The notes under the pieces are model-generated. The model searched no databases and was not told the origin of the DNA. It saw only the letters and a program-made list of their open reading frames with translations. The position numbers were made by a program, and so were the translations under genes. Shown in pieces: positions 6,124 to 25,739 of a stretch of 32,000 nt of DNA. This DNA comes from Horticoccus luteus (lineage in GTDB: Bacteria; Verrucomicrobiota; Verrucomicrobiia; Opitutales; Opitutaceae): the NCBI RefSeq assembly GCF_019464535.1, contig NZ_CP080507.1, positions 690,001 through 722,000 of the forward strand, written 5' to 3'. How positions within the stretch are numbered: position 1 is the stretch's first letter; every line of letters starts with the position of its first letter.

Positions 6124-9100
6124 GCGCGACGCGACACGTGATGATTCTGGCTTCGGCCGGCTCGGGGAAAACCTACGCGTTGACGAACCGGTTTGTGAGC
6201 CTGCTGGCGCAGGGCGCGGCACCGGAGCGGATCGTCGCGCTGACGTTTACGCGGAAGGCGGCGGGAGAGTTTTTCGACGAGATCCTCAACAAGCTGGCCG
6301 ATGCGGCGGCGGACGAGGTCAAAGCGGGCCGGCTCGCGGCGGACATCGGGCGGCCGGACTTGGGGGCGGCGGATTTCGGGCGCTTGTTGCGCGGCGTGGT
6401 CGACGCCATGCACCGGCTGCGGCTGGGGACGCTGGATAGTTTTTTCGCGCGGGTGGCGCGGGCGTTTCCGTTTGAGCTGGGGCTCGCGGGCGAGTTCGAG
6501 ATTTTGCAGGAGCATGCGGCGCGAACCGAGCGGCAGCGTGTGCTGCAGCGGCTCTTTACGCACACCGGGGAACTGCAGCCGGAACAGCGGGAGTTCATCG
6601 AGGCATTCAAGCGTGCGACGATGGGCATGGAGGAGAAGCAACTGGGCGCGCGGCTCGACAAGTTCATCGACGAGCATCACGAGAAATATCTGGGCGCGCC
6701 GGCGGCGGAGGTGTGGGGCAATGCCGCGACGATCTGGCCGGAAGGGCAACCGTGGTTGCGAACCGTGGAGCTGGCGCCGGCGCTCGCGGCGTTGCGGACG
6801 TGGCTGGCGACGGCGGAGATCGCACCCAAACAACGGCAGCGGTGGGAAAACTTTTTGCAGGCGGCGGAAATGTGGGCGCCGGGAGTGGATATCAAAGGGC
6901 CGCTCGCGTATGTGCTCGAGAAGGCGTTGGAGGCGTGGGCGGAATTGGGGCGGGGCGACGTGGAGCTGGCATTCGATCACAAGAAACAGTGCCTCACTTC
7001 GGCGGCCGGCGCGGCGCTGGCGGATGTGGTGTGCCATGTGGCGGGCGGCGAGCTGACGCGGAAACTGGCGACGACGCGCGGGATTCACGCGGTCGTGCGC
7101 GGCTACGATCAGGCTTACCACGCGGCGGTGCGGCGGGCGGGCAAACTGACGTTTGCCGATGTGCAACGCCTGTTGATGCCGGGGGGCGGGGAGCGTCCGA
7201 GACTGACGCGCGTGGCGGAGGAGGAAGAAGGCAACCGGTTGTTCATCGATTACCGGCTGGACGCGGAGATCGACCACTGGCTGCTCGATGAATTCCAGGA
7301 CACGAGCTACGGGCAGTGGAGCATCCTGCGCAACTTGATCGACGAGGCGGTGCAGGATGCGGAAGGGCGGCGGAGCTTTTTCTGCGTGGGGGATGTGAAG
7401 CAGGCAATTTTCACGTGGCGGGAGGGCGACCCGCGGTTGTTCGGGGAGATTTTTCGCTATTACAATGACGCGGCGCCGGGCTCGATTGAGCAGGAGTATC
7501 TGGTGCGTTCGTGGCGTTCGGGACCGGCGCTGATCGAAATGGTGAACGCGGTTTTTGGGGCGGGGGAGGTGATCGCGGAATTTTTCCCCGGGCGGCCGAG
7601 CGAGTTGTGGAATGAAGCGTGGCGCGACCACGAGTCGGCGGTGCCGGACCGGGTGGGGCAGGCGGCGTTGCTGCATGCGGACGATGGCGTGGACCGGTTT
7701 GCGACGACGTTGCGCCTCGTGCAGGAGCTCGATCCGCTGGCGGCAGGACTGACGTGCGCGGTGCTCGTGCGGAAGAACGACGAGGCGGCGGCGATCGCGG
7801 ACTACCTGCGGCGCGAAGGCGGCGTGCCTGCCGTGGCGGAGTCGGATCTGCACGTGGCCACGGATAATCCGATGGGTGCGGCGATGCTGGCGTTGTTTCA
7901 GGCGGCGGCGCATCCGGGCGACACCCTCGCGGGGGAGCATTTGCGCATGTCGCCTCTCGGCGAAATCACGGAGGCACGGGAGCTCGGCACGCCGGAAGCG
8001 TTGAGCCGGCGCGTGCTGAGCCAGGTGCATGCGGAGGGTTTCGAGCGCACGGCGGCTTACTGGCTGCGGGCGGACGGAAATCGGATGCAGGGGAGCGATG
8101 TGTTTGGGGCGCAGCGGGCGCGGCAGTTCATCGCGGCGGCGGCGCTTTTCGATGCGACCGGCAGCCGCGACGTGACGGAGTTCGTGGCGTTCATGCAGGT
8201 TTACAAGGAGCGCGAACCAGAGAGCGCGGCGATGGTGCGCGTGCTGACCATTCACAAATCCAAAGGCCTCGGCTTTGATGTGGTGATTGTGCCGGCGTTG
8301 GAGGGCACGCGGGTGGACCAGGCGCGCGAGGGGCTCGCGATGAAGAAGGCGGCTGATCGTTCGGTCGAATGGGTGTTGGACCTGCCGACCAAAGCGTTGG
8401 CGACGGCGGATGCCGTGTTGACGGACTATGTGCGGGAGGCGGAGGCGGTGGCGGGCTACGAGGCGTTGTCGCTTCTCTACGTGGCGATGACGCGCGCCAA
8501 GCGGGCGATGTATGTGATCACTGAGCGCGTGGGAAAATCGAGTTCGCGCAACTTTCCGCAATTGCTGGCCCGGACGCTGGGGGAGGCGGACACGATGATA
8601 AAAGTCGGCGGCCTCACCCTTCCCGGAGCATGGGCCTTCGGTGATCCGGATTGGCGGCAGCAGGTGTCGACGCTGGGGCCACCGGCGGCGCCGGACGAAA
8701 CTTTGCCGCTGCTGCCTGAAGCGGATCGCACGGTCGGTGTGCGCGCGGTCGCGCTGCGTCCTTCGAGCGAGCGCACCGGAGTCGTGCCGGCGCCGCAGGT
8801 GTTTGCATTAAACGGATCGGCGGCGAGTGAGTTTGGCACGTCGGTGCACGGGCTGTTGGCGGATATCGAATGGTGGCCGCACGCGAGCGGCGAAGCGTGG
8901 AAGCGTGGCTGGGAGGCTCGCGGGGTGGAGCATGCCGCGATCGCGGAGGCGTGGCGTTGCGTGACGGCCGCGGCGCTCGGAGAAGTGTGGCGGCGGCCGG
9001 CGGGCAAAGCAGAAGTCTGGCGGGAGAAGGCGTTCGAGATTCTGCTCGATGGCGCGTGGATCACGGGCGTGTTCGATCGGGTGGTGGTGGCGCGCGACGA

Positions 9101-9320
9101 CGCCGGCCGGGCGACGGCGGCGGTGGTTTATGATTTCAAAACGGACCGGGTCGGGAACGAGGGGGAGATTGCCCGCGCCGTCGAGCGTCACGCCGGGCAA
9201 CTGGACATCTATCGGCGCGCGGCAGCGGTGCTTACCGGTTTGCCGGTCGCGGCGGTTGTGACGGAGCTGGTGTTCACGGCAGCCGCGCGAAGAGTGGTGG
9301 TGCCGGGAGCTGCCCGCTAA
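6120..9320 (+). CDS. addA: AddA-like UvrD/Rep superfamily-1 helicase with a C-terminal PD-(D/E)XK nuclease domain
   Basis: Helicase motifs: Walker A ASAGSGKTY, motif II LDEFQDTS, TIHKSKGLGFDVV and LLYVAMTRAKRAMYV. C-terminal nuclease: GTSVHGLL, VFDRVVV...VVYDFKTD and QLDIYRRAA. I prefer the ATG at 6120 because it overlaps the addB stop (ATGA); the track's start at 6105 is a GTG. Confidence 0.88.
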   Translation: MSATRHVMILASAGSGKTYALTNRFVSLLAQGAAPERIVALTFTRKAAGEFFDEILNKLADAAADEVKAGRLAADIGRPDLGAADFGRLLRGVVDAMHRLRLGTLDSFFARVARAFPFELGLAGEFEILQEHAARTERQRVLQRLFTHTGELQPEQREFIEAFKRATMGMEEKQLGARLDKFIDEHHEKYLGAPAAEVWGNAATIWPEGQPWLRTVELAPALAALRTWLATAEIAPKQRQRWENFLQAAEMWAPGVDIKGPLAYVLEKALEAWAELGRGDVELAFDHKKQCLTSAAGAALADVVCHVAGGELTRKLATTRGIHAVVRGYDQAYHAAVRRAGKLTFADVQRLLMPGGGERPRLTRVAEEEEGNRLFIDYRLDAEIDHWLLDEFQDTSYGQWSILRNLIDEAVQDAEGRRSFFCVGDVKQAIFTWREGDPRLFGEIFRYYNDAAPGSIEQEYLVRSWRSGPALIEMVNAVFGAGEVIAEFFPGRPSELWNEAWRDHESAVPDRVGQAALLHADDGVDRFATTLRLVQELDPLAAGLTCAVLVRKNDEAAAIADYLRREGGVPAVAESDLHVATDNPMGAAMLALFQAAAHPGDTLAGEHLRMSPLGEITEARELGTPEALSRRVLSQVHAEGFERTAAYWLRADGNRMQGSDVFGAQRARQFIAAAALFDATGSRDVTEFVAFMQVYKEREPESAAMVRVLTIHKSKGLGFDVVIVPALEGTRVDQAREGLAMKKAADRSVEWVLDLPTKALATADAVLTDYVREAEAVAGYEALSLLYVAMTRAKRAMYVITERVGKSSSRNFPQLLARTLGEADTMIKVGGLTLPGAWAFGDPDWRQQVSTLGPPAAPDETLPLLPEADRTVGVRAVALRPSSERTGVVPAPQVFALNGSAASEFGTSVHGLLADIEWWPHASGEAWKRGWEARGVEHAAIAEAWRCVTAAALGEVWRRPAGKAEVWREKAFEILLDGAWITGVFDRVVVARDDAGRATAAVVYDFKTDRVGNEGEIARAVERHAGQLDIYRRAAAVLTGLPVAAVVTELVFTAAARRVVVPGAAR

Positions 9321-9390: not shown

Positions 9391-9492
9391 ATGGGCAATC
9401 TGAAAAAGAAGCGGCGTCTTAAGATGTCGAAACACAAGCGCCGGAAGCGGCTTAAGTCGAACCGCCACAAGAAGCGCACGTGGCAGAAGTGA
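9391..9492 (+). CDS. 33-aa highly basic micro-protein, bS22-like (AURKAIP1/COX24-type small ribosomal protein)
   Basis: The ORF is ATG..TGA and encodes [33 protein letters not shown]. It is not in the supplied track because it is under 60 aa. From memory, it has the same length and the KKRR-x-[KR]-MSK-x-K-x-RK pattern of actinobacterial bS22 ([21 protein letters not shown]...). It has its own strong terminator 40 nt downstream. Confidence 0.6.
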
Positions 9493-9531: not shown

Positions 9532-9560
9532 ACCCGCCGCCTCCACGCGGCGGGTTTTTT
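9532..9560 (+). terminator. Rho-independent terminator after the bS22-like micro-ORF
   Basis: A 9-bp stem, acccgccgc (9532-9540) with gcggcgggt (9547-9555). The loop is 6 nt and the T-run spans 9555-9560. Confidence 0.75.
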
Positions 9561-9764: not shown

Positions 9765-10820
9765 ATGCTCTTCGCCACCAAGCCCAAAGGCTATTTTGTC
9801 GCGCGGAACGCCGATCAGGTGTTGCTCGCCCGGACGTCGAATCCGACTGAATCGCCTGTGACGATCGAGGCGTTGCGGAGCTGTGCGGCGGACGATGCCG
9901 CAGCGATGGCGGCGGCGCTGGGGGAATTGCAACCGAAGAAGGCGCCCAGCGGCTACTTGCACGCGGTCTGCGGCGTGCACCCGGAACGGCAGGTGATCCG
10001 ACGGGCGACCTTGGAGTTAAAGCGTGTGAAGGAGCCTGGCTATCTGGAAGAGGCATGCGCGACGCAGTTGCGCATCGAACCGAAGGATTACGTGCTGGCG
10101 GTGCTTAACGCCAACGACGGCAGCGACTATGATGTCGCGAAAGCCACCGGCAAAGAGGTGACGGTGTGCGGATTGCGGCACGATGACATCGCCACCACGC
10201 AGGAAGCGCTGCTGGCGGCGGGCATTTATCCGGAGCGGCTGGAGCTGGGGGCGGTGGCCGCGATCGGCGCATTGACGGACGTGTTGACGTTTGCCCATTC
10301 GAAGTCGCCCACGCTCTTGCTGGAATTTGGCGCGGAGATGACGAACTCGTTTATCGTGAGCGCGAACGGCCTCGAGGCGGCGCGGCCGATCGGGAGCGGA
10401 CTGCAGTCGATGGTCCCGATCGTGCAAAAGGAATTGGGTCTGAAGGACGAGGAGGCCGCGGCGAAGCTGTTTTACTCGGGCGCATTTGATTTCAGCGGCC
10501 TCGGACCGGCGTTGATTAAGAAGCTGCTGAAGGAATTACAGGCTTCGATCGGGTTTTACGAAGTGCAGACCGGCCAGTCCGTCGGGCAGTTGGTCTGCAC
10601 ACAGCTGCCGCCGGTGCTGGCGTGGTTGCAGGACGCCGTGGCCAACGCGCTGGGCGTGACGGTGCTGACGGTTGAGTTTGAGCCGTGGCTGCAGTCGCGG
10701 CGGATCGTGTTGCCGGAGACGTTGCGCGCGACGGTCACGGATACGCGTTGGTTGGGGTTGTTCGGATTAATGGCACGATTTGAAGGCGCCCATGCGGAAA
10801 ATTCTCCAGCGAAAGCCTAA
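9765..10820 (+). CDS. pilM: PilM-like actin-fold assembly protein (type IV pilus / T2SS-like alignment complex)
   Basis: The size is 351 aa. The central segment [52 protein letters not shown] matches the PilM pattern (lDiGa..T...v..g....R.i..GG......ia.....s..eAE..K). It is the first gene of an M-N-O-P-secretin order. Confidence 0.6.
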
Positions 10821-11427
10821 GGCGGCGACTGCGCCCATGGTGCCGGCGTGGCACCCGAATTTCCGCGACTACGAACGTCTGCCGGACGTGAAAGTCGTGC
10901 GCACGGCGTTTCTCGTGAACGGCGCTGCGATCGTGGTGATGACGGCGCTCTTGTTGTGGGTGGCGTTCAACGAATACCATTTGCGGGACTTGCGCAGCCG
11001 GATCGAGGCGTGGGACGCGCAAATCCACCGGAACCGGGTCGCGAGTGCGCGCGCGGTGGCGCTCTATAAAAAGTTTCAAACGGATGAGGCGCGGCTGCGG
11101 GAGATCGACGCGTTCGTAAAATCGAAACCGGCGTTTTCGCCGTTGATGTTGCGATTGGGGGCGACGCTGCCGGCGACGATGGCCCTCGATGCCGTGACTT
11201 GGCGCGACGGCAGTTTGTCGCTGCGGGGCACGGTTCGAGGTTCGCCCGATGCGGCGAGCGGGTACGCGTCAGCTTACGTGGAGCGGTTGCGCACCGATGC
11301 GGAGTTGGGACCGCTGTTTGAAAGCGTCACCCTGACCAGTGTGGCGCGGCACGCAGTCACGGGCCGGCTGCTCGTGGAAATCGTGTTGGCCGGGAAGGGC
11401 ACCTCCAAGCCTGTGGCCAAGAAATAA
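10792..11427 (+). CDS. pilN: PilN-like bitopic membrane protein
   Basis: It has a short cytoplasmic N-terminus, one TM helix (FLVNGAAIVVMTALLLWVAF), a coiled segment, and then a ferredoxin-like C-terminal pattern (LDAVTWRDGSLSLRGTVRGS...YVERLR...FESVTLTSV). A GAAGG Shine-Dalgarno sequence lies 5 nt upstream of the ATG at 10792. The gene overlaps the end of pilM. Confidence 0.55.
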   Translation: MRKILQRKPKAATAPMVPAWHPNFRDYERLPDVKVVRTAFLVNGAAIVVMTALLLWVAFNEYHLRDLRSRIEAWDAQIHRNRVASARAVALYKKFQTDEARLREIDAFVKSKPAFSPLMLRLGATLPATMALDAVTWRDGSLSLRGTVRGSPDAASGYASAYVERLRTDAELGPLFESVTLTSVARHAVTGRLLVEIVLAGKGTSKPVAKK

Positions 11428-11428
11428 C

Positions 11429-12001
11429 ATGGCACTCACCGGACCCCAACTGCTGGCGGCGCTGAAAAAGCATCCCGTCGCCACTCTCGCCATCGCCGTT
11501 TCGATTGGTTGCGCGGCACTCCTTTATTTTCGCCAAGGCGACAGTGAGGCGCTGACGGCGGATCTGGAGCAAAAGACGCAGGAAGGCGAGCGGCTGGAGG
11601 CGAACATCAAAAATTCGACGCAGCTCACGGAGCAATCGGCGGCGTTGAGCGAGGCGATGAATGCGGTCGAAGGCCGGCTGATTCGTGCAGCGAACCTCGC
11701 GGATAACCTCCAATATTTTTACCGGCTCGAATCCGAAACCGGCGCCAAACTGATCGACTTGAAGCAAACGGGAGCGGAGTTGCCAGCGGTCAAGGGGCCG
11801 AAGCCGTTGTTTCAGCCGATCGGTTTCACGGTGGGATTGCGCGGGAGCTATGATCAGGTGCTTGAGTTTGTGCGCAAGGTGGAGAACGGCGCGCCATTTT
11901 CGCGCATCGTCGCCGCGACCGTCACGAGTCCGCCGGAGTCTCTCGACAAAGGCTCGTTCGTCACGCTCAGCCTCAACGTCGAACTGCTCGGATTGCCATG
12001 A
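11429..12001 (+). CDS. pilO: PilO-like bitopic membrane protein
   Basis: I take the ATG at 11429, 1 nt after the pilN-like stop. The protein has one TM helix (VATLAIAVSIGCAALLYF), a coiled coil, and then a PilO-like C-terminus (FQPIGFTVGLRGSYDQVLEFVRKVENGAPFSRIV). The upstream part of the track ORF (from 11339) overlaps the pilN-like gene and is discounted. Confidence 0.55.
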   Translation: MALTGPQLLAALKKHPVATLAIAVSIGCAALLYFRQGDSEALTADLEQKTQEGERLEANIKNSTQLTEQSAALSEAMNAVEGRLIRAANLADNLQYFYRLESETGAKLIDLKQTGAELPAVKGPKPLFQPIGFTVGLRGSYDQVLEFVRKVENGAPFSRIVAATVTSPPESLDKGSFVTLSLNVELLGLP

Positions 12002-12501
12002 GGATACGCTGGACTCTTCTTTTGCTGATCGCCCTCGCCGCGCGCACGGCGTTCGGCGCCGCGCGCGCTGATGTCCCGCCCCCGGCTGACCGGGCCCCCG
12101 TGATTGAGCTGGCGCGACGACTGGCGCAACCGCCCAAAGTCGAACCGCTGGCGGTGGATCTGCCGCAACCGTTTAACCCGCCCGGCTTCGACCTGCCGGA
12201 TCCCTCCGAACGCCGTCCGACGGCCGCGCCGGCCGCCGGCGAACCGGCCGCTCCCGTGACGGATCGGCAGGTGCTGGAAAAGATCGCGGCGCGCATCCGG
12301 CCCTCGGGCCTCGTGATCATCAACGGCGAATCGCTGCTCATCTTCGGCCAGAAGCGCCTGAAGGTCGGCGATCATCTGATCGTTACTCTCGATAAAACCG
12401 ACTACGACGTGGAAATCACCGCGATCGATTCGGCCGGCTACTCGCTCCGGCTAAATCGCGACGAAATCACGCGTTCCCTGAACCCCGGCCATACTCCATG
12501 A
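11998..12501 (+). CDS. PilP/GspC-HR-like periplasmic protein (signal peptide, Pro-rich linker, small beta domain)
   Basis: The signal peptide MRIRWTLLLLIALAARTAFGAA has no lipobox Cys. The C-terminal GLVIINGESLLIFGQKRLKVGDHLIVTLDKTDYDVEITAIDSAGYSLRL resembles the PilP/GspC secretin-contacting beta domain. ATGA overlaps occur with both neighbouring genes. Confidence 0.45.
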   Translation: MRIRWTLLLLIALAARTAFGAARADVPPPADRAPVIELARRLAQPPKVEPLAVDLPQPFNPPGFDLPDPSERRPTAAPAAGEPAAPVTDRQVLEKIAARIRPSGLVIINGESLLIFGQKRLKVGDHLIVTLDKTDYDVEITAIDSAGYSLRLNRDEITRSLNPGHTP

Positions 12502-14309
12502 GCTCACGTCCGCTCCTTACGACTCTCCTTGCCCTGACTGCCTTGTCGCTCTCGGCGCAGCCGGCGACGCCTGCGGCCACCCCGGTGACCCCGGTGGTGG
12601 TGACGCCTGCGCCCGCGCCCGTGCCGGTCAAAGTCATCCCGGCGTCGGCGCACCCCGTCGAAACGGTCACGATCAAGGAAACCGCGGCGGCCACCCCCGC
12701 CGTGAAATCCCGCGACGCAGCCGGCCACGATACGCTGTCCGTCGATTTTCCCGATACCGAGATTCGTGACATCCTGCGCAACGTCGCCGATCTGTTCGAA
12801 TTGAACGTCGTGATCCCCGATACGTTGCAGGGGAAGACTTCGATCAAGCTTCGCGACGTGTCGTGGCGCCAGATTTTCCAAGTTGTGCTCGCACCGGTGA
12901 ATTTCACCTACGTGGAGGATGGCAACATCATCAAAATCATCTCGCTTGATTCCCTTCAGCAGGAGCCGGTCGCGACCGAGGTGTTCATGCTCAACTACGC
13001 CCGGGCGTCCGACCTGCTCGCGTCCGTGTCGCCGCTGATCGACGCCGCCGCCGGCGGCCGCATCGTGGTCGATGCCCGCAGCAACAGTCTCGTCATCACC
13101 GAGCGGCCGTCGCGCATGAATCGCATCCGGCCGATCTTGGAGCAACTCGATCGGGCGACTGATCAGGTGATGATCGAGTCGAAGTTCGTCGAGGTGACCG
13201 ACCGCGACATCAAGAACATCGGCGTCAACTGGGCTTCGCTGGCCGGCTACAACATCACGGCGGGCGGCGCGGGGGAAAATGGCGCGTTTGGCAACGTCTC
13301 GCGCAGCCGCGGCCAGAGCACGCAAAATGGCAACTCGGGCAATACCGCGACGACCAGCGGCACCAATAACAGCAGCAGTTCCACCGGCACGAACGGCCAG
13401 TCCAACGGCGCCACGACCACGAACACCGTTACTTCAACGGGGGGCATCGTGACGTCCACCGGCACCACCAGCCTCAACACAGGCCTGACGGGCAGCACCA
13501 CGACGACGACCACCACGGGCACCACCGGCGCGGTCAACGACACCTTCAATGTCCTCCAGTCGCTCACCAACACCGGCGCCACCGACCGCGCGCTGTCGGC
13601 GGTGTTTTCGGCCGACCAATTCAAACTCGTGCTGAGCGCGTTGCAGAGCTTGAACACCACGAAGATCGTTTCGAACCCCACGATCGTCACGCTCAATAAC
13701 ACCGAAGCGTCCATCAACGTCGGTGAGGAGCGGCCGATTCCGAATTATTCCTACAGCGAGCAGAAGGGCACCTTCGAAGTCAGCGGGTTTACCTTCAAAC
13801 CGATCGGCGTGCTGCTCAAAGTCACCCCGCAGGTCAACGGACGCGGCTTCATCAAACTCAGTCTTTCCCCCGAAGTCAGTCAGCCCAACGGCAGCGTGGT
13901 CTTCGGTGGTGCGAGTGGCACGGAGATTCCGATCATCGCCACGCGCCGCGCGACCACGCAGGTCTCGCTGAAAGACGGTTACACGATGGGCATCGGCGGC
14001 CTGCTCACGCAGAACGCCAACACCGGCCAGACGAAAGTGCCCGTCCTCGGCTCGATCCCGCTCGTCGGGCGGCTTTTCCGCTCGGACAGCAAGGATGTGA
14101 CGACGAGCAATCTCATCATCTTCATCACCGCGAAAACGATCAGTGCTGACGGTGCGCCCGTTGAAGAAGTGTTCAGCTCGCAGCAAGTGCGGCAGTTGGA
14201 AATGAAGCGGGAAGACCTGCCGGGCTATCGCGACGGCGCGGATCCATTCGTGAAAACGATGACACCAGCCGAGGCAAAGGCGGCGAAGAAAGCCAAGCAG
14301 CAGCAATGA
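12498..14309 (+). CDS. pilQ: Outer-membrane secretin (PilQ/GspD family) with N0 (STN) and N1 domains and a low-complexity insertion
   Basis: Signal peptide, then STN/N0 (LSVDFPDTEIRDILRNVADLFELNVVIPD...IKLRDVSWRQIF) and an N1/NolW-like domain (VFMLNYARASDLLASV...IVVDARSNSLVITE). The secretin core is VMIESKFVEVTDRDIKNIGVNW, KIVSNPTIVTLNNTEASINVGEE and VPVLGSIPLVGRLFRS...NLIIFITAK. Confidence 0.9.
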   Translation: MSSRPLLTTLLALTALSLSAQPATPAATPVTPVVVTPAPAPVPVKVIPASAHPVETVTIKETAAATPAVKSRDAAGHDTLSVDFPDTEIRDILRNVADLFELNVVIPDTLQGKTSIKLRDVSWRQIFQVVLAPVNFTYVEDGNIIKIISLDSLQQEPVATEVFMLNYARASDLLASVSPLIDAAAGGRIVVDARSNSLVITERPSRMNRIRPILEQLDRATDQVMIESKFVEVTDRDIKNIGVNWASLAGYNITAGGAGENGAFGNVSRSRGQSTQNGNSGNTATTSGTNNSSSSTGTNGQSNGATTTNTVTSTGGIVTSTGTTSLNTGLTGSTTTTTTTGTTGAVNDTFNVLQSLTNTGATDRALSAVFSADQFKLVLSALQSLNTTKIVSNPTIVTLNNTEASINVGEERPIPNYSYSEQKGTFEVSGFTFKPIGVLLKVTPQVNGRGFIKLSLSPEVSQPNGSVVFGGASGTEIPIIATRRATTQVSLKDGYTMGIGGLLTQNANTGQTKVPVLGSIPLVGRLFRSDSKDVTTSNLIIFITAKTISADGAPVEEVFSSQQVRQLEMKREDLPGYRDGADPFVKTMTPAEAKAAKKAKQQQ

Positions 14310-14353
14310 ACGGCCGTCCCGGATCTCTTTCACTCTCAACCGAAGGTGTGACC

Positions 14354-17300
14354 ATGAAACCTTGGTGGAAACTTCTCTGCGGCGCAGCGCTGTCGGCGGC
14401 CCTCGCGCTGACTGGCTTCGCTCAATCGCAGTCCCCGATCAACGTCACGATCATCGGCATTGGCGTGAATGGCGTGCCGACCGCGCCAGCCAACGAACGC
14501 TCGGGACCCGCCGGCACGCCGATCGAAATCGAGGCGCAGGGCCTCGGCACCTCGATGATCACGAGCTTCACTTATTCAGCTTACGTGAACGGCGTGCATA
14601 TCGGCACTTCGCAAACCGCCATCAACCCGCCCAGCACGTTTATCGTCGAGTGGACGCCACCGGCACCGGGTGCGTATTTCATCACCGTCAAAATCGATGA
14701 CGGCACCAGCACCGCCACGTCGCTGCCGGTTCGCTACTTCGCGACCGGCACGACGGTGAACAGCCCAGTCGACGGCACGCTCGTCCCCGCGGGATCCTCC
14801 GTGGTTTTGAAAGCCGACGCCACCGGCGCCCAGGGTTTCGTGAAACAGGTGCAATTTTATGCCAACGGCGTGGCGATCGGCGCGGCGGATACGACCTATC
14901 CCTACTCGTTGATCTACACGCCCCAAGGCGCTGGCGGCACGAGCTACAGCATCACCGCCGTCGCCACCGACAACAATGGGGCAATGTTGAGCACCAGCCC
15001 GGCCATCACGCTCACCACCGTGACACCCATTCCGGCCCCGCCGACGAGCGTCATCAGCACGCCCGAAGATGGAGCCGTCATCGCGGTTCCCTCCGCGACC
15101 TCGCCGCTCGCGGTCGTGGTCGACGCCAACAGCAGCAGTGGTTTCGTGAGCAAAGTGGAACTGTATATCGACGGCGTGCTGTCGGATACGAAGACCACTT
15201 ATCCATATAAGTTCACGTGGACGCCGCAGGTCGTGGGCACGTATCACCTCGTGGCGTTGACCTATGACGACAAGAATAACGTCGTGGCTTCGAGCGCCGG
15301 CGTCGGCGGTGGCGCCACGCCGACCCCGACGACAGTCACGATCGCGGCCCCGCCGACCGTGACCATTTCCGCGCCGACGGCGAACAGCACCCTGACCAGC
15401 GGCACGCCCGTGCAGGTCAGCGCGACCGCCACGGATCCAGGCGGCCATGCGATCACCTCCGTGCAATTTTTCGTGGACAGTGAATTTGTGGGCGTGGTCA
15501 GCACCCCGAGCGCGGGATCGACCTACACGATCACGACGACGTTGTCGCAGAAAACATCGTCCGACGGCACGCCGATTCCCTCCAGCATCACCGCGCTGGC
15601 GACGAACAATGTCGGCCTCGCGACAATTTCGAGTGCCATCACGGTCAACGTGACGGCCGGCGGCGGCAGTGGCGGCGGCACCGTCATTGGCAATGCGCCG
15701 ACGGTCAGCGTCACCGCGCCCGTCGCCGCCACGCCACTCGCCGTCAACGTGCCGCACACCTTGGCGGCCAACGCGACCGACACCGATGGCAACATCGTGT
15801 CCGTGCAGTTTTTCGTGAACGGCACCTCGGTCGGCACGGTGAACACCTATCCCTACTCCCTTTCCTGGACGCCCGTCAGCTTGGGCGCGTACGCCATCAC
15901 CGCCGCGGCGACCGACAACGACGGCAACTCCGTCACGAGCAGCACAGTGAGCGTCAGCGTGGTCGACCCCAGCGCCAGCGCGCCGACGGTCGTGGTGACG
16001 AGTCCGGCCAACCTCGCCTCGATCGCGGTCAACGCACCGCAGACGCTGATTGCGAGCGCGACGGACGATGTCGCGATTTCGGGGGTGCAATTCTACGTGA
16101 ACGGTCAGCCGCAAGGGTTGCCGATCACCGCGTTTCCGTATGCCACCTCCTGGCTGCCCGCCTCACCCGGCACCTACGCGATCAAAGCGGTGGCGAGCGA
16201 TAACGTGGGCAACCAAACCACTTCGGCGACGAACGTCATCACCGTCACCGCGACGCCGCCGGCTTCAGCGGTCGTGGTCATTACGGCTCCATCCTCCGTG
16301 CCGACCATCTTTGTTAACAGCGCGCATACCGTGTCGGCGGACGCGGCGGTAGCCAATGGCAACATCGTTTCCGTACAGTTCTTCGCCAATGGAGCTCCGA
16401 TCGGCAACGTGAACAATTATCCGTATGCCGTAAGCTGGACGCCAGTCACACCCGGCACCTACGCCCTCACTGCGGTCGCCAAAGACAATCACGGCCTCCA
16501 AACGACTTCGCCCGATCAAGTCGTCACGGTCGTGGCTGGTTCGGCGCCAAGCGTTACGCTGGTCGCTCCTGCGGACGGCGCGAGCGTCGCGCTGGGCGGG
16601 ACACAGAACATTACGGCCAGCGCTAATGGGGGTTCCGCGAGCGTTGCGTCCGTGCAATTCTTCTTGAACGGTAACCTCCTTGGGGTCGCCACGAGCGCGC
16701 CTTACACGATCCAGTGGACGCCATTGACACTGGGAACTTACGCGTTGACCGCCGCCGTGACGGACACAAATGGACATACCGTCACGAGTGCGCCGATCTC
16801 TGCGACAGTGGTCGTGCCCAAGCCCTCGCTCGCGTTCACTCCTCCGACGAGCGTTACTGTCAATACCCTGCAAACACTGGTCGCTACCGCGACGCCGGTC
16901 GCCGGCACTTCCGTTACGCAAGTGGAGTTTTTTATTAACGGGGCTTCGGTCGGGGTCGACACGCTGGCGCCCTATACGATGCCTTGGACGCCGGCTGCCA
17001 CAGGCACCTATACACTCTCAGCTATTGCGACGGATAGTCTGGGCGGTCAGTCAGCACTTGTCTCGGTTCCGGTCAGCGTCGTCGCATTGCCGCGCATCGA
17101 CGTGGTCTCTCCCAATGGCGGCGCCACCTACGTGCTCGGCACTCCTACCGCTCTGGTTGCCAATGTAACCGTGGGCAGCGGCCTCGTGGCCGGCGTTTCA
17201 TTCTTCGTCAACGATGTCAACGTCACGCAAGGTGATGAACTGCTCGCGCCTGTCGCTCTTCAGGGCAGCGGGTCGCCTTTCTTTTCGCAAAATTGGCTCC

Positions 17301-20300
17301 CTGCTGCGGCTGGCAACTACAGTGTCGTTGCGAAGGTGCGAGATACCAACGGTAACACGGCCACCTCAACTCCGGTGGCCATCACGATCACGTCAGGTGT
17401 GGCCCCGACGGTAGCCATGGCCACGCCTGCGAATGGTGCCATACTGTCTATTAATGTCCCCGTGATGCTCTTAGCGAACGCGAACTCGACCACAGGTTCG
17501 ATCTCCCGTGTCCGTTTTTTTGCGAATAACATGACCGTCGGTGATGCCGTTACGGAATACCCCTATTTTGTCTCCTTCACGCCGCCGTCCCCTGGCGTTT
17601 ATGTGCTCACAGCACAAGCGACGGATAATCTAGGCAATATCACCACCAGCGCGCCGCATATCGTCACGGCAACGCCCGCGGCGACTTCGATTGCGATCAC
17701 GGCGCCGACGAACGGAGCGACCGCCCTTGTCAACAAGACTCACGACATCACAGCGACAGTCACAGCGGGCAGCGTTCCGGTCAGCAACGTGGAGTTTTTT
17801 GTTGATGGCGTTTCCATCGGAGTGGCGACGCAGATGCCCTATACCGTTTCGTGGACTCCAACGCTTGCCGGTATGCACATTGTCAAAGCGGTCGCAACTG
17901 ATCTGGTGGGAGCCAAGACATCGTCGCTCGCGGTAAGTCTCGTCACGCCGCTAAGCGTCGCAATCACCTCGCCGGCCAGTCTAGGCACGGTCGCTGGTGG
18001 TGCCGTAACACAGGTGACGGTGACCGCGACGAGCACGAATGGTTATCCGGTGAACGTGCAGCTTTTCGCCGACGACAAATACGTTGGCGAAACGACCATC
18101 ATGACCGCCGGCGGGTCCGGCACGATCACCTTCACTCCAGTGCAGAAGAAAATCATGGATGCCAACGGCAACCTGGTCTTGGTGCCCACGCCCTTGAGGG
18201 CGGTCGCCAGCGACGTGAGCGGAGTAACCGCCACCTCTGCGGAGATTCAGGTCAACGTCACGGAAGGCGGCAGCGGGACGGGCTCGACGGTCGTCGGCCA
18301 GCCTCCGGTGGCTGCGTTGATTACGCCCACGGCCAGCACAACCTTGCCGGTCGCCGCTCCGGTCACGCTTGGTGCCACGGCTTCCGATCCCGACGGCAAT
18401 ATCACGTCGGTTATCTTCCGGGTGAACGGCCAGGTGTATGCCACCCTGAACGCATATCCTTACTACACGTTGTGGACGCCGACGAATCTCGGCACTTACG
18501 CGATCGACGTCAAAGTCACCGACAACGACGGCAACACCACGATCAGCGCCCCAGTGACGGTGTCCGTCATCGATCCCGGCCCGGGATTGCCGACGGTCGC
18601 GATCACAAGTCCCGCCAACAACGCGGTCGTCACCGCCGGGACGATTACAAACGTGACCGCGTCCGCCACGGATGACATCAGCGTGGCGCGCGTGCAGTTT
18701 TACGTGAACGGCCAGCCGCTCGGCGAGGCCATCACTGCTTCGCCTTACAACGTGAGCTGGACGCCTTCGACTCCGGGCACTTACACGCTGGTCGCCCGCG
18801 CGACGGACAACATCGGCAATCAGGCGACATCCAGCCCGGTCACGGTGACCGTTGGCACCAACGCGGCCCCGGTCGTGGCGTTGACGACACCCACTTCGGG
18901 TTCGAGCGCCGTCAGCGGGATGCCGGTAAATCTCACCGCCACTGCGAATGACGCCGACGGCACCGTCGTGCTGGTGCGTTTTCTGGCGAACAATATCGAA
19001 GTCGGGCGGGCGACGACGGCGCCATTTACGGTCGCGTGGACACCCGGTTCGGCGGGTGCTTATACGCTCGTGGCGGAGGCGACGGATAATTCGAGCAATG
19101 TCGCGCTGTCGGCGAGCGCCAGCCTTACGGTCGTGGCAAACCAAGCGCCGACGGTGCGCGTGACGGCGCCGAGCGACGGCAGCACGTTGGCGCAGGGCAC
19201 GGCCACCACGATTACGGCTCAGGCGGCGGACGCCGATGGCTCTGTCACCTCAGTCAAGTTTTACGTCAACGGAGCGCTGCTCGCCACGGGGGCGGCGGCA
19301 CCTTACAGCACGCCTTGGACGCCGTCGTCAGCGGGCTTGTATCGCCTCAACGCGGTCGCAACGGACAACGCCGGGATCACCACGACGTCGGCTGACGTTA
19401 ATATCATGGTCGTGAGTCCGGGCAGCACGGCGCCGGACGTCGTCTATAAAGGCATCTACGGATCAGCGGAGCAGGGCACGTTCATGATGATCAACATCGG
19501 TGGAAAGCATGCGGCGTTGATCGGCCAGTCGAGCAGTGGGCCGGCGAAAACGTATTTCCTACCGGCAGTCACATTGAACAGCACGGGCGGATTCGACGCG
19601 ATGCTGGGCGGCAAAGCTTTTGCCGGGCAGGCGACCGAGGGCGCGGCGACCGCCACGCTGGGCGGCAACGCCGGCTTGGTCTTCATCGCCCCGACCGTCC
19701 CGGCGGCCGGAAGCGCCGTGGCATCCGGTTACTACACGGGCAATCTCACCGGCGCGCCTGCAAGCCAGGTGGCGGCTATCGTCGCGCCCGACGGCTCGAT
19801 CGAGGTTTATGTCGCCAATGGCACTTTCACGGACGCGGGCGCCGGCACGGTGGACGGAACCGGCGCATTCCGGGTGACGACCGCTGCGGGCAATACGCTG
19901 AGCGGCACCGCCGATCCGGCGACAGGTTTCCTCACGGGCACGCTCACCGGCAGTTCGGGTGGCGCGTTCACCGGCGCGATCGCTTCGGGCTCCAGTTTGA
20001 GTGATGGCGCGCTGCTCAACGTCTCGACGCGCGGACTCGCGAGTGCGGGCGATAAAGTGCTGATTGCGGGCTTCGTCGTGGAAGGCACGACACCGAAGCG
20101 CATGCTCGTGCGCGCCGCAGGCCCGTCACTGGGTCTGGCGGGGCAAGTCGCGAATCCCTCGGTCGCTCTGTTCAATCAGGCGGGAGCAGCGGTGGCCTCC
20201 AACGACGATTGGGCCACGCCGGTCGGGGTGGGCGCGGCCACGCAGGGCGACATCGCGGCAGCGGCGAATCTGGTGGGCGCGTTTCCTTTCACCACGGCAT

Positions 20301-20845
20301 TCGATTCCGCCGTGCTGACGACGCTCGCCCCCGGCGTTTATACGGCGCAGGTGAGCAGCGGCTCAGGCACCGCGGGGATCGCGCTTGTGGAGGTTTACGA
20401 CGTCGATACGCCCGCCTCATTTTCGGCGAAGAAAATCGTCAACCTCTCCACGCGCGGACAGGTCGGCGCGGGCGGAGATGAAGGCTTGATCGCGGGCTTC
20501 GTGATTTCCGGCCATGCGCCGAAGAAGGTGCTGATTCGCGGGGCCGGGCCTTGGCTCGCGCAATTCGGTGTCGCGGGTGTGCTCGCGAACCCCAAAATCT
20601 CGCTCTACCGCACGAATCCCCCGGCCGCGCCCACCTTGGTGCGCGAAAACGACGACTGGGAGGTGGGGAACGACTCCGCGCTCATCGTGGACGCGACGGC
20701 GAAGGCTCGGGCGGCGCCGTTTGACGCGGGCAGCAAGGACGCGGCGATTCTGCTGCGGCTGCCGCCCGGCGTTTACACGGCGAATCTCACGGGCGTCGCG
20801 GGCGCAACGGGCATCGCGCTGATCGAAGTCTACGAAGTGCCGTAA
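14354..20845 (+). CDS. Giant secreted 2163-aa protein with four parts: signal peptide, ~17 tandem bacterial Ig-like modules, a Gly/Ala/Thr-rich bipartite middle module, and a tandem pair of the shared C-terminal module
   Basis: I take the ATG at 14354, which has a GAAGG Shine-Dalgarno sequence at 14342-14346 and encodes the signal peptide MKPWWKLLCGAALSAALALTGFAQS. The recurrent module pattern is A.A.D.dG.I.sVqFfvNG..vG...t.PY...WtP...G.Y.l.A.AtDn.G..ttS. The C-terminal modules start at NVSTR and NLSTR. Confidence 0.9.
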   Translation: MKPWWKLLCGAALSAALALTGFAQSQSPINVTIIGIGVNGVPTAPANERSGPAGTPIEIEAQGLGTSMITSFTYSAYVNGVHIGTSQTAINPPSTFIVEWTPPAPGAYFITVKIDDGTSTATSLPVRYFATGTTVNSPVDGTLVPAGSSVVLKADATGAQGFVKQVQFYANGVAIGAADTTYPYSLIYTPQGAGGTSYSITAVATDNNGAMLSTSPAITLTTVTPIPAPPTSVISTPEDGAVIAVPSATSPLAVVVDANSSSGFVSKVELYIDGVLSDTKTTYPYKFTWTPQVVGTYHLVALTYDDKNNVVASSAGVGGGATPTPTTVTIAAPPTVTISAPTANSTLTSGTPVQVSATATDPGGHAITSVQFFVDSEFVGVVSTPSAGSTYTITTTLSQKTSSDGTPIPSSITALATNNVGLATISSAITVNVTAGGGSGGGTVIGNAPTVSVTAPVAATPLAVNVPHTLAANATDTDGNIVSVQFFVNGTSVGTVNTYPYSLSWTPVSLGAYAITAAATDNDGNSVTSSTVSVSVVDPSASAPTVVVTSPANLASIAVNAPQTLIASATDDVAISGVQFYVNGQPQGLPITAFPYATSWLPASPGTYAIKAVASDNVGNQTTSATNVITVTATPPASAVVVITAPSSVPTIFVNSAHTVSADAAVANGNIVSVQFFANGAPIGNVNNYPYAVSWTPVTPGTYALTAVAKDNHGLQTTSPDQVVTVVAGSAPSVTLVAPADGASVALGGTQNITASANGGSASVASVQFFLNGNLLGVATSAPYTIQWTPLTLGTYALTAAVTDTNGHTVTSAPISATVVVPKPSLAFTPPTSVTVNTLQTLVATATPVAGTSVTQVEFFINGASVGVDTLAPYTMPWTPAATGTYTLSAIATDSLGGQSALVSVPVSVVALPRIDVVSPNGGATYVLGTPTALVANVTVGSGLVAGVSFFVNDVNVTQGDELLAPVALQGSGSPFFSQNWLPAAAGNYSVVAKVRDTNGNTATSTPVAITITSGVAPTVAMATPANGAILSINVPVMLLANANSTTGSISRVRFFANNMTVGDAVTEYPYFVSFTPPSPGVYVLTAQATDNLGNITTSAPHIVTATPAATSIAITAPTNGATALVNKTHDITATVTAGSVPVSNVEFFVDGVSIGVATQMPYTVSWTPTLAGMHIVKAVATDLVGAKTSSLAVSLVTPLSVAITSPASLGTVAGGAVTQVTVTATSTNGYPVNVQLFADDKYVGETTIMTAGGSGTITFTPVQKKIMDANGNLVLVPTPLRAVASDVSGVTATSAEIQVNVTEGGSGTGSTVVGQPPVAALITPTASTTLPVAAPVTLGATASDPDGNITSVIFRVNGQVYATLNAYPYYTLWTPTNLGTYAIDVKVTDNDGNTTISAPVTVSVIDPGPGLPTVAITSPANNAVVTAGTITNVTASATDDISVARVQFYVNGQPLGEAITASPYNVSWTPSTPGTYTLVARATDNIGNQATSSPVTVTVGTNAAPVVALTTPTSGSSAVSGMPVNLTATANDADGTVVLVRFLANNIEVGRATTAPFTVAWTPGSAGAYTLVAEATDNSSNVALSASASLTVVANQAPTVRVTAPSDGSTLAQGTATTITAQAADADGSVTSVKFYVNGALLATGAAAPYSTPWTPSSAGLYRLNAVATDNAGITTTSADVNIMVVSPGSTAPDVVYKGIYGSAEQGTFMMINIGGKHAALIGQSSSGPAKTYFLPAVTLNSTGGFDAMLGGKAFAGQATEGAATATLGGNAGLVFIAPTVPAAGSAVASGYYTGNLTGAPASQVAAIVAPDGSIEVYVANGTFTDAGAGTVDGTGAFRVTTAAGNTLSGTADPATGFLTGTLTGSSGGAFTGAIASGSSLSDGALLNVSTRGLASAGDKVLIAGFVVEGTTPKRMLVRAAGPSLGLAGQVANPSVALFNQAGAAVASNDDWATPVGVGAATQGDIAAAANLVGAFPFTTAFDSAVLTTLAPGVYTAQVSSGSGTAGIALVEVYDVDTPASFSAKKIVNLSTRGQVGAGGDEGLIAGFVISGHAPKKVLIRGAGPWLAQFGVAGVLANPKISLYRTNPPAAPTLVRENDDWEVGNDSALIVDATAKARAAPFDAGSKDAAILLRLPPGVYTANLTGVAGATGIALIEVYEVP
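14432..19420 (+). repeat. Array of ~17 tandem ~95-100-aa Ig-like coding repeats inside the giant gene
   Basis: I counted seventeen occurrences of the core [VI]-x-[FYL]-[FY]-[VAI]-[ND]-[GSDN] plus PY..(W)TP signature, for example VQFYANG, VELYIDG, VQFFVDS, VQFFVNG, VQFYVNG, VQFFANG, VQFFLNG, VEFFING and so on. Confidence 0.8.
20006..20842 (+). other. Tandem pair of the shared C-terminal module, copies B1 (20006-20431) and B2 (20432-20842)
   Basis: B1 runs GALLNVSTRGLASAGDKVLIAGFVVEG...MLVRAAGPSL...NDDW...GVYTAQV...IALVEVYD. B2 runs KIVNLSTRGQVGAGGDEGLIAGFVISG...VLIRGAGPWL...NDDW...SKDAAILL...GVYTANL...IALIEVYEVP-stop. Confidence 0.75.
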
Positions 20846-20865
20846 ACGCGGTGGGCGCAGGAAAC

Positions 20866-20894
20866 GGCGGGCGCATCGCGGACGGTGCGCCGCC
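20866..20894. terminator. Candidate bidirectional hairpin between convergent genes
   Basis: ggcgggcgca (20866-20875) pairs with tgcgccgcc (20886-20894) with one bulge. There is no T-run, so this call is weak. Confidence 0.3.
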
Positions 20895-20902
20895 GCCTCG
20901 CG

Positions 20903-21514
20903 TTACCACCAGCCCGCGACGAAACCGGCGCACGCTTTGATGGCGAAGACGCCGGCGTTTTTGGCGAAGTGCGCAGCGACGCAGGGCACGAGCGAGCGCG
21001 TGCGGTTCCACGCCGCGAGGCGCGCAGCGTAGAGCCACAACGACGTGACAAACACGGCCGCGGCGCTGAACCAGCCTTTCGCGCCAAGGGTGAAGGCGAA
21101 GCCGTGTTCATCCCATTGCCAGAGGAAAGGGTGGAGCGCGGCGAACAGCAGCGATGCGCCGAACGCGGCGAGCCACATGACGGTGCGGCCGCGGTTTTCC
21201 ACCACGAGGTAGCCGCGAAACACCAACTCCTCGATGATCGGCGCACAAAGCGTGTAGAGCGCGAAAAGGATCGTCATGTGGCTTTGCTGCGCGGCGAGCC
21301 CGAGGCGTTGTTCCCCCCACGTTTCGGCGGCCAGGATCACCAGCACGCCGGCGCAGGCGATCGTGACGGCGCGAAGAGACGTGGGCCGGGCGCCCGGCAG
21401 CGCGCCAGGGCGAGCCTGGCCGGCGGTTTGCGCGCGGTAGTCCTGCCACCAAAAGCGCGCGATCAAGACAGACATCGCGATCATGACGAGGAGGACGACA
21501 GGGTTGTTGCTCAT
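20903..21514 (-). CDS. CPBP family intramembrane glutamic endopeptidase (CAAX protease-like)
   Basis: The protein is multi-pass hydrophobic and 203 aa long. It carries the three CPBP motifs: EELVFRGYL (EExxxR), FAALHP (FxxxH) and HFAKN (HxxxN). Confidence 0.8.
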   Translation of the reverse strand: MSNNPVVLLVMIAMSVLIARFWWQDYRAQTAGQARPGALPGARPTSLRAVTIACAGVLVILAAETWGEQRLGLAAQQSHMTILFALYTLCAPIIEELVFRGYLVVENRGRTVMWLAAFGASLLFAALHPFLWQWDEHGFAFTLGAKGWFSAAAVFVTSLWLYAARLAAWNRTRSLVPCVAAHFAKNAGVFAIKACAGFVAGWW

Positions 21515-21575
21515 GGTGGCAGGGGATTCGTTAGTCCATTGACGAGCGCCTGCCTAGTCCCGTTTGCTAGGTCGC

Positions 21576-22625: not shown

Positions 22626-22805
22626 TTGGCGGAAGAACTGGCAGGAGGGAGCGAGGGCACCTGATGCGCGCGTTGACGTGCCGAGGGTGGGTGCGGCGTC
22701 AGGTGTCCGGTGCGCGCGTGAAACTTTAGGAAAACACCTCATGACGCGCCTCCGGGATGAGATTCAGTTTGCGCCTTTCGGTGCGGAGGATTGGATTGCA
22801 TCCGC

Positions 22806-24262: not shown

Positions 24263-24287
24263 GCCCCCGTTCAGCCTTTATTCACCC

Positions 24288-24312
24288 AAGCCCCGCCGCG
24301 TGCGGGGCTTTT
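24288..24312 (+). terminator. Rho-independent terminator after the sigma/anti-sigma pair
   Basis: A 9-bp stem, aagccccgc (24288-24296) with gcggggctt (24302-24310). The loop is 5 nt and is followed by tttt. Confidence 0.7.
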
Positions 24313-24344
24313 GCTTTCCGGCCGGTGAACGGTAAGGTCTCTGC

Positions 24345-25739
<1,395 letters not shown>

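Follow-up and report, generated by a model that had tools for sequence, protein, structure and literature searches.

The subject of this analysis is the segment 9765-20845 (+ strand) of a 32,000-nucleotide stretch of the genome of the soil bacterium Horticoccus luteus (Opitutaceae, Verrucomicrobiota); "the window" below means this whole stretch. The segment carries a five-gene cluster for PilM-, PilN-, PilO- and PilP-like proteins and a secretin, followed directly by the gene for a giant protein built of immunoglobulin (Ig)-like repeats. We propose, with a probability of about one half, that it is one transcription unit, which encodes an alignment subcomplex of the type IVa pilus (T4aP) kind, its secretin and an accessory giant adhesin probably exported through this same secretin. 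Gene order was taken from the open reading frame (ORF) listing together with Pfam and NCBIfam family scans, and the features of the segment and its edges are as follows.

9532-9555, + strand: intrinsic terminator, a 9-bp stem with 8 GC pairs and then a T-run, 3′ of a bS22-like ORF
9765-14309, + strand: five-gene cluster for PilM-, PilN-, PilO- and PilP-like proteins and a secretin
9765-10820, + strand: pilM-like gene, 351 aa
10792-11427, + strand: pilN-like gene, 211 aa; ATG at 10792, or alternative start TTG at 10780
11429-12001, + strand: pilO-like gene, 190 aa; ATG at 11429, 1-nt gap after pilN
11998-12501, + strand: gene in the pilP position, 167 aa; ATGA overlap with pilO at 11998
12498-14309, + strand: secretin gene, 603 aa; ATGA overlap with pilP at 12498
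14310-14353, + strand: spacer of 44 nt between secretin and giant genes; Shine-Dalgarno sequence GAAGGTG at 14342-14348, 5 nt ahead of the ATG at 14354
14354-20845, + strand: giant gene, 2163 aa; the ATG at 14354 begins the signal peptide MKPWWKLLCGAALSAALALTGFAQ
20850-20910, no strand assigned: GC-rich hairpin between the convergent giant and CPBP genes; predicted fold of -39.8 kcal/mol, no T-run

An earlier note on this DNA, made from the letters alone, had described a PilM/N/O/P-like set plus secretin whose genes are tightly coupled and run into the giant gene with no pilus motor or pilin genes around them. The coupling was found as described, with the pilM/pilN overlap amounting to 29-41 nt depending on the pilN start, and the protein set is upheld by the structural, profile and positional evidence given below (position and topology only for PilN and PilP). 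The gap between secretin and giant genes was also correctly read as free of a terminator: a terminator scan of 14310-14353 returned no terminator-like site, and the predicted fold of the spacer is weak (-8.5 kcal/mol). An alternative ATG for the giant gene at 14306 would overlap the secretin stop, and the orthologues favour the MK... start at 14354. The sole strong terminator near the operon is that at 9532-9555, on the upstream side, where it forms the upstream edge of the operon and leaves a non-coding leader of ~210 nt before pilM. At the other end, the hairpin that the note had named as the next stop after 20845 is present and probably marks where the transcription unit ends. Genes for pilin, prepilin peptidase, PilB/PilT and PilC, listed by the note as missing, gave no match among the larger ORFs of the window in the Pfam and NCBIfam scans, and neither a prepilin motif nor a GspE/PilB-type Walker A motif turned up in a six-frame motif scan of the window; an Rfam scan of the window gave no matches. 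Clusters of pilMNOPQ are often located apart from pilBCD.

The arrangement is conserved across the family. A profile of the PilM-like protein retrieved 375 relatives among species-representative genomes, and the best 80 loci were taken with 10-kb flanks; all belong to Opitutaceae/Opitutales (PilM-like identity 53-62%), and 57 of them, the window included, were scorable downstream. With the window proteins as tblastn queries, the order pilM-N-O-P-secretin was found in every one of the 80 loci long enough to show it, usually with AddA and a small basic ORF upstream of pilM. A homologue of the giant gene lies on the + strand directly 3′ of the secretin in 46 of the 57 scorable loci (81%). These homologues share 30-52% identity with the Ig-repeat region of the window protein and, where the contig extends, 39-56% with its C-terminal region. 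They start 18-82 nt past the secretin stop (mostly 38-50), with a conserved GAGGTG and a signal peptide of the form MKxxxRxLLG...A. Within 10 kb on either side in the 80 loci, no pilin or motor genes were found, except for prepilin-type genes upstream in nine relatives.

Neighbour-joining trees were built from PilM alone or from concatenated PilM/N/O and secretin core. In these, loci without the giant gene fall in several lineages, parsimony requires ~6 state changes, and one deep clade (L058/63/72/74/75) is entirely without it. In the giant-less loci the secretin is followed by the CPBP gene and/or by a backbone of polyprenyl synthase, extracytoplasmic function (ECF) sigma factor and fumarase genes, with no remnant of the giant gene; this block, which also holds a 274-aa ORF, is syntenic across Opitutaceae, where it lies 3′ of the secretin gene or, if present, of the giant gene. 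The giant gene might then have no functional link to the operon and simply fill a permissive slot at its 3′ end, ahead of the backbone. Some six gains or losses with clean junctions would fit such a slot, as would the highly variable length (1113 to >2170 aa) and passenger content of the giant homologues. However, 81% of the scorable species-level loci retain the gene, across deep branches. Its strand never changes, the spacer stays short, and both ribosome-binding site and signal peptide are conserved. A gene of 3.3-6.5 kb is unlikely to have been carried along neutrally while the family diverged, so we regard the absence of any link as distinctly unlikely. The comparison instead points to a link between operon and giant gene that is old and strongly maintained, yet dispensable, with the giant as an accessory to the operon.

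Among the five products of the cluster Pfam recognised only the secretin, and the PilM-, PilN-, PilO- and PilP-like proteins had no match above cut-off in Pfam or NCBIfam; the set is so divergent that standard domain libraries miss four of the five operon proteins. The PilM-like protein matched TIGR01175 (pilM) at E = 3.4e-9, below cut-off, and a sequence-profile search of the PDB with the PilM alignment returned just weak matches to dehydratase reactivases, giving no identity from sequence. Because sequence-level searches gave no usable match, the assignment was made through an AlphaFold2 model (mean predicted local distance difference test score, pLDDT, 74.5). In a Foldseek search of the PDB with this model, ranks 1-10 were all PilM (best 2ych_A, 7.4e-16, template-modelling (TM) score 0.61), with FtsA lower, and the matches included the PilM structures of Pseudomonas aeruginosa and Myxococcus xanthus. 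Judged by the predicted fold, the first gene encodes a cytoplasmic protein of the PilM kind, folded as an actin-like ATPase; across Opitutaceae its orthologues share ~60% identity.

Canonical PilN is a bitopic protein whose conserved cytoplasmic N-terminus (INLLP motif) binds PilM. The second gene product is likewise a bitopic inner-membrane protein, with a cytoplasmic N-terminus, one transmembrane helix and a periplasmic domain, and its gene always stands between pilM and pilO in the surveyed loci. It had no PilN match in Pfam or NCBIfam and the canonical INLLP motif was not seen; its alignment has an invariant WHPNFR..LPD.KVVRT motif ahead of the transmembrane segment, on the cytoplasmic side. 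The window copy of the third protein matched NCBIfam GspM at E = 5.8e-4, and its orthologues matched Pfam T2SSM_b in 19 of 30 cases (best E = 1e-4) and PilO in 2 of 30, all below curated cut-offs; by these profile matches we place it in the PilO/GspM family, as a bitopic inner-membrane protein. In the fourth protein a signal peptide is followed by a Pro/Ala-rich linker and, in the alignment, a conserved C-terminal beta domain of ~70 aa; it has no lipobox cysteine and no family match. Canonical PilP is an inner-membrane lipoprotein whose C-terminal beta-sandwich contacts the N0 domain of the secretin.

The secretin itself is well recognised (Pfam Secretin 1.7e-45, Secretin_N 3e-15, STN/N0 1e-7, all above cut-off) and consists of a signal peptide, N0/STN, one Secretin_N domain, the core and a basic C-terminal tail of ~55 aa. 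It scored 255.6 bits with NCBIfam PilQ TIGR02515 (cut-off 284) versus 227.7 bits with GspD TIGR02517 (cut-off 351), and its closest solved relative is the PilQ of the Vibrio cholerae competence T4aP (6w6m, E = 3.4e-40). AMIN domains are frequent, though not universal, on proteobacterial PilQ; none was detected on this secretin in the Pfam scan. From its profile scores and closest relative we classify the secretin as PilQ-type. Within the Verrucomicrobiota, the PilQ-type secretin Amuc_1098 is the most abundant outer-membrane protein of Akkermansia muciniphila (PMC4960237). The window secretin matched the Amuc_1098 model over its last ~80 residues only (113 bits, cut-off 750) and, unlike Amuc_1098, has no N-terminal TPR/BAM-like domain; no giant downstream adhesin is described for Amuc_1098.

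Both the gene order and the coupling are those of the T4aP pilMNOPQ operons of P. aeruginosa, M. xanthus, Thermus thermophilus and V. cholerae competence, which, as here, have pilM and pilN as separate genes and lie apart from the pilB/C/T and pilin genes. Separate coding of PilM and PilN, with no fused GspL, suggests that within the type IV filament superfamily the cluster belongs to the type IVa-pilus branch. It differs from the T4aP operons in that its PilP-position protein has no lipobox and its secretin no detected AMIN domain, in the long beta-lip region of the secretin (~130-175 aa, rich in Ser/Thr/Gly/Asn), and in the giant non-pilin adhesin gene appended to it. A canonical type II secretion system (T2SS) has a fused GspL, a GspC with HR and PDZ domains and a GspD with N0-N3 and an S-domain. 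In contrast, family scans of the cluster gave no match to GspC or PDZ and detected only one Secretin_N domain.

The giant protein starts with a Sec signal peptide, continues through at least 15 Big_7 Ig-like domains (Pfam Big_7 2.9e-179, 15 stretches) and a conserved domain of ~190 aa, and ends in a tandem C-terminal module described below. Besides unassigned C-terminal domains, Ig-like and PKD were the only families detected in it. Across the homologues the N-terminal and passenger regions are poorly conserved, and no conserved N-terminal docking domain was found beyond the signal peptide. Pfam and NCBIfam scans of the giant protein revealed no beta-barrel, no RTX-type, two-partner secretion (TPS)-type or type IX secretion system (T9SS) feature and no C-terminal transmembrane sorting feature, nor does it carry a CTERM-type signal (MYXO-, JDVT-, Synerg- or PEP-CTERM), its end lying inside a folded beta-sandwich with no transmembrane helix. 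It thus has what is expected of a T2SS or type IV pilus substrate: an N-terminal signal peptide (Sec or Tat in such substrates) and no domain of its own for crossing the outer membrane.

Our proposal is built on these features. PilM, the PilN- and PilO-like proteins, the PilP-position protein and the PilQ-type secretin would form an envelope-spanning alignment subcomplex with an outer-membrane pore, with pilins, motor ATPases and platform protein presumably encoded elsewhere. The giant, a family-wide but dispensable accessory, would be co-transcribed with the pore. As it has a signal peptide, it would cross the inner membrane via Sec and fold in the periplasm. As it has no barrel, TPS, RTX, T9SS or CTERM features, a secretin-based, type II-like step, probably at this very secretin, is the most plausible route over the outer membrane. 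It would then act outside the cell as a surface adhesin or matrix-binding fibre, and its C-terminal pair may serve as a binding or retention module, possibly also as a recognition element.

Precedents exist for the parts of this scheme. In the pulA/pul locus of Klebsiella oxytoca and the sslE/yghJ locus of Escherichia coli T2SS-beta, a comparison that draws partly on established knowledge, a Sec-dependent large surface or secreted protein is encoded beside or within the operon of the secretin machine that exports it, an arrangement like the one proposed here. These loci encode a complete T2SS (GspC-O), whereas the H. luteus locus has the alignment/secretin module only, and of the pilus type; moreover, PulA and SslE are lipoproteins and the giant protein is not. 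Pullulanase, MYXO-CTERM and GlyGly-CTERM proteins reach the surface via T2SS (PMC11980579). InvL of Acinetobacter baumannii, an invasin-like Ig adhesin lacking a barrel, needs the T2SS for surface display (PMC9245377). InvL and the giant are both Ig-domain adhesins with no type V secretion system (T5SS) beta-barrel, but InvL is a small lipoprotein encoded outside the secretion operon and has no tandem PPC-like pair, and its reliance on the secretion machine was shown by experiment, whereas that of the giant is conjectural.

The CPBP/CAAX intramembrane protease encoded next to the giant gene was considered as a sorting enzyme for the giant and rejected: the giant has no C-terminal transmembrane helix, the protease scored 32 bits with MrtJ (cut-off 75) and 30 bits with MrtS, far below cut-off, and its gene also occurs in giant-less loci. 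It is kept in some giant-bearing and some giant-less loci, with no link to the giant evident.

The C-terminal module of the giant recurs at the end of two other proteins of the window, and all three start with a signal peptide.

20015-20842, + strand: tandem module of the giant, beta-sandwiches at aa 1888-2017 and 2029-2163; ends ...GIALIEVYEVP at the stop codon
2339-3097, + strand: same module at the C-terminus of an 881-aa I-set Ig protein (452-3097)
27775-28617, + strand: same module at the C-terminus of a 778-aa reprolysin-like metalloprotease (26281-28617)

Each of the three contains exactly two copies of a unit of ~116-137 aa, the second ending 1-3 residues before the stop; the two units of the giant are 45% similar to each other, and database matches nearly all span 100% of the pair. 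It is the tandem pair that is conserved as a unit. When 1.84 billion cluster representatives were searched with a profile of the module, 19,943 matched, 11,478 of them at E ≤ 1e-30. Of the best 150, 133 have a match that stops no more than 6 residues short of the C-terminus; among proteins with a single match, 87 of 88 do. The last residues are ...ALxEVYEVP or a close variant in 45 of 49 aligned homologues. The passengers are diverse (Ig, I-set Ig, FN3, NHL, PQQ, Kelch, RCC1, plastocyanin and reprolysin/protease domains), and, of the other two tagged proteins of the window, one is a CpaA/Mep72-like metalloprotease. The 881-aa protein of the window (+ strand) has four eukaryote-type I-set/Ig_3 domains ahead of its module (Ig_3 2.3e-41, I-set 3.4e-33), and I-set passengers are recurrent among module-bearing proteins.

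Neither Pfam nor NCBIfam holds a model that matches the module above cut-off. Among 50 module members, two matched Pfam PPC (PF04151; best E = 0.072) and one a T9SS C-terminal domain (Por_Secre_tail or type B; E = 0.028). Of the three window proteins the DVUA0089 model NF038127 (cut-off 29 bits) matched the metalloprotease alone (19.9 bits, E = 7.8e-4), the giant and the 881-aa Ig protein giving no match. The AlphaFold2 model of the module (pLDDT 92) had as its best Foldseek match in the PDB the s3a-s3b collagen-binding pair of ColG (5iku, E = 3.1e-8, probability 1.00), with low TM scores owing to a different orientation of the two domains relative to each other; this match places the module in the PPC/collagen-binding-domain fold class. 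The module and ColG s3a-s3b are alike in being tandem beta-sandwiches with which a secreted protein ends, but sequence identity is ~10%, and the ...ALxEVYEVP end and the NxSTRG...GFV...RAxGPxL...NDxW motifs are peculiar to the module family. A C-terminal element common to many unrelated surface proteins, with display that depends on the T2SS, is also seen in MYXO-CTERM/myxosortase and GlyGly-CTERM/rhombosortase (PMC11980579). Those tags consist of a short motif and a transmembrane helix, whereas the module is a folded tandem domain of 270 aa with no such helix; and the CPBP-family protease gene that here adjoins the giant gene is, as described above, far from the MrtJ and MrtS models and also found in giant-less loci.

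Six module proteins (P0185, P0199, P0204, P0210, P0221, P0234) gave sub-threshold matches to Pfam Secretin (E = 2e-4 to 7e-3), in which the first ~30 residues of the module (NxSTRG.VGTGDxxLIxGFxI; the start of a module copy, e.g. ~20015-20110) align with positions 96-127 of the Pfam model. Kinship between module and secretin domain was rejected: neither BLAST nor phmmer gave a match to the window secretin, and the match to the Pfam model covers 30 residues and is below threshold. It is probably a resemblance between short beta-hairpin motifs.

The secretin of the window has a further feature that bears on the giant protein.

13230-13547, + strand: low-complexity stretch rich in Ser/Thr/Gly/Asn, secretin ~aa 245-350, inside the beta-lip region

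The stretch comes directly after the first core strand (QVMIESKFVEV...GVNW), and 6w6m has just ~20 residues between the aligned blocks that flank it. By analogy with the lip position taken from the f1 pIV paper, it is predicted to sit on the barrel rim, facing the outside of the cell. Secretin lips measure 36 residues in phage secretins, 51-60 in type II secretins and ~80 in those with a cap gate (bioRxiv 10.1101/2021.07.20.453082; PMC10329019). In the aligned Opitutaceae secretins, the lip region is 131-175 aa long with 52-69% Ser/Thr/Gly/Asn in all giant-bearing loci and 59-130 aa with 33-50% in nine of the 11 giant-less loci (raw rank test of lip against giant presence, p = 9e-6, over loci that are phylogenetically related). 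This is no more than suggestive of co-evolution of lip and giant gene. The lip may be glycosylated or serve in docking.

Two further readings follow from lip and module. The giant could be a structural partner, that is, a cap, collar or fibre docked on the expanded lip or on a pilus. The lip is expanded wherever the giant gene is present and reduced in most loci lacking it, Deinococcus radiodurans has separate cap and belt proteins around its secretin (PMC10828601), and the C-terminal pair has a binding-domain fold, as in ColG. On the other hand, the same pair is carried by unrelated enzymes and binding proteins in their thousands, which cannot all be secretin subunits, the N-terminal and passenger regions of the giant are poorly conserved, and the lip correlation is uncorrected for phylogeny; we consider a structural partner very unlikely. 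Alternatively, the tandem PPC-like pair could be a C-terminal domain of a kind not yet described, which directs secretion or surface retention in secretin-dependent export. It would be the functional counterpart, in type II and type IV-filament machines, of the C-terminal domain of T9SS substrates, with the giant as its flagship client in Opitutaceae and the expanded lip as its docking or retention site. Some 20,000 representatives with no model, the C-terminal position and the diverse passengers fit this reading, which we nevertheless judge unlikely.

Several observations weigh against export of the giant through this secretin from a shared transcription unit. In 11 of the 57 scorable loci the operon is intact with no giant gene, and the core role of the machine should therefore be independent of the giant protein. 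Two giant-less loci (L060 and L070) are exceptions to the lip correlation, and ~4 of 6 lineage contrasts agree with it, phylogeny being a confounder. The module also occurs in Candidatus Competibacter(aceae), Gammaproteobacteria, and two module genes elsewhere, one in Competibacter and one on a 1.1-Mb contig, have neighbours unrelated to secretins; the module is therefore not specific to this secretin type. It appears to be a widespread, unannotated and almost strictly C-terminal domain of signal-peptide proteins, not one private to this secretin. The second gene is taken as PilN-like from position and topology, the fourth as PilP-like from position, with an architecture that would fit, and a profile-profile comparison of the PilN-like and PilO-like proteins detected no similarity, so paralogy is unusable as support. 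Co-transcription of giant and secretin genes is suggested by their spacing only. Finally, the giant may in fact leave by another secretin, or by a complete T2SS, should the H. luteus genome encode one.

Much of this evidence fits a reading in which the giant is co-regulated with pili for attachment but exported otherwise, for example by a canonical T2SS secretin encoded elsewhere. Besides full conservation of the operon in the giant-less loci, the occurrence of other module genes in unrelated contexts, and of the module in organisms that have no operon of this type, would be expected. Operons of the pilMNOPQ kind normally serve pili and not protein secretion, and no motor or pilin genes nearby hint at a self-contained secretion system. 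Co-regulation, however, leaves the co-variation of secretin lip and giant unexplained, as well as the fact that the giant gene has so long kept its place next to the secretin, at a short and constant distance, and not elsewhere in an adhesion regulon; we hold this reading to be somewhat unlikely.

The balance also bears on the interpretation in the earlier note, which had called the segment a candidate dedicated secretin-cargo locus and had proposed a synteny survey. The survey supports a conserved operonic link between secretin and giant gene. Of the note's two alternatives, cargo of the secretin or an adhesin associated with secretin or pilus, either may hold, and mere co-expression is a further possibility. 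Dedication of the secretin to the giant has to be given up, as the operon persists in the giant-less loci, a deep clade among them, and the module is found on ~20,000 clusters with many passengers, in another phylum and in contexts unrelated to secretins.

We know of no account of how Verrucomicrobia and other bacteria of the Planctomycetes-Verrucomicrobia-Chlamydiae (PVC) group move giant Sec-dependent surface proteins over the outer membrane. The locus makes that question testable: in a cultured species, it joins one such protein to a pilus-type secretin, and this pairing is spread across the family and stable in evolution. It also exposes a very large unannotated family of C-terminal tandem beta-sandwiches, whose position and passengers resemble those of a sorting or retention signal. 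To our knowledge, no general secretion signal has been described for substrates of type II or type IV-filament machines; if the module or the lip acts in recognition, it would amount to a new rule of substrate selection for such machines. Experiments would be best directed at two leads, the C-terminal module and the co-variation of the lip. Even with no link, the analysis leaves a highly divergent PilMNOPQ set, overlooked by standard domain libraries, cleanly annotated.

The genes on either side of the segment are as follows.

452-3097, + strand: 881-aa Ig protein
3256-9320, + strand: AddB-/AddA-like nuclease/helicase genes
9391-9492, + strand: 33-aa basic ORF, ahead of the terminator at 9532-9555
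20903-21514, - strand: CPBP/CAAX intramembrane protease gene, converging on the giant gene; the sole - strand gene of the layout
21564-25739, + strand: polyprenyl synthase, ECF sigma factor, 274-aa ORF with no family match, and fumarase; then UPF0047
26281-28617, + strand: 778-aa reprolysin-like metalloprotease; then ClpB

The prepilin-type genes of the nine relatives (GFTLVEV or a close variant; L036, L007, L011, L020, L022, L027, L030, L042, L057) lie 7-10 kb upstream of pilM, beyond addB, and in L036 (1108-2594, - strand) two ORFs score above the TIGR02532 cut-off. Their occurrence near the operon in relatives adds to the case for a pilus-type machine. At the corresponding position H. luteus has the 881-aa module-bearing Ig protein.

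The 33-aa basic ORF had a tblastn match in 67 of the 80 Opitutaceae loci, usually directly 5′ of pilM, with 88-100% identity in all of these bar one at 72%. It matched the bS22 model NF047430 (NCBIfam) at E = 0.0018 (18.4 bits, cut-off 34) and is perhaps a bS22-like ribosomal protein so far unannotated in Verrucomicrobiota.

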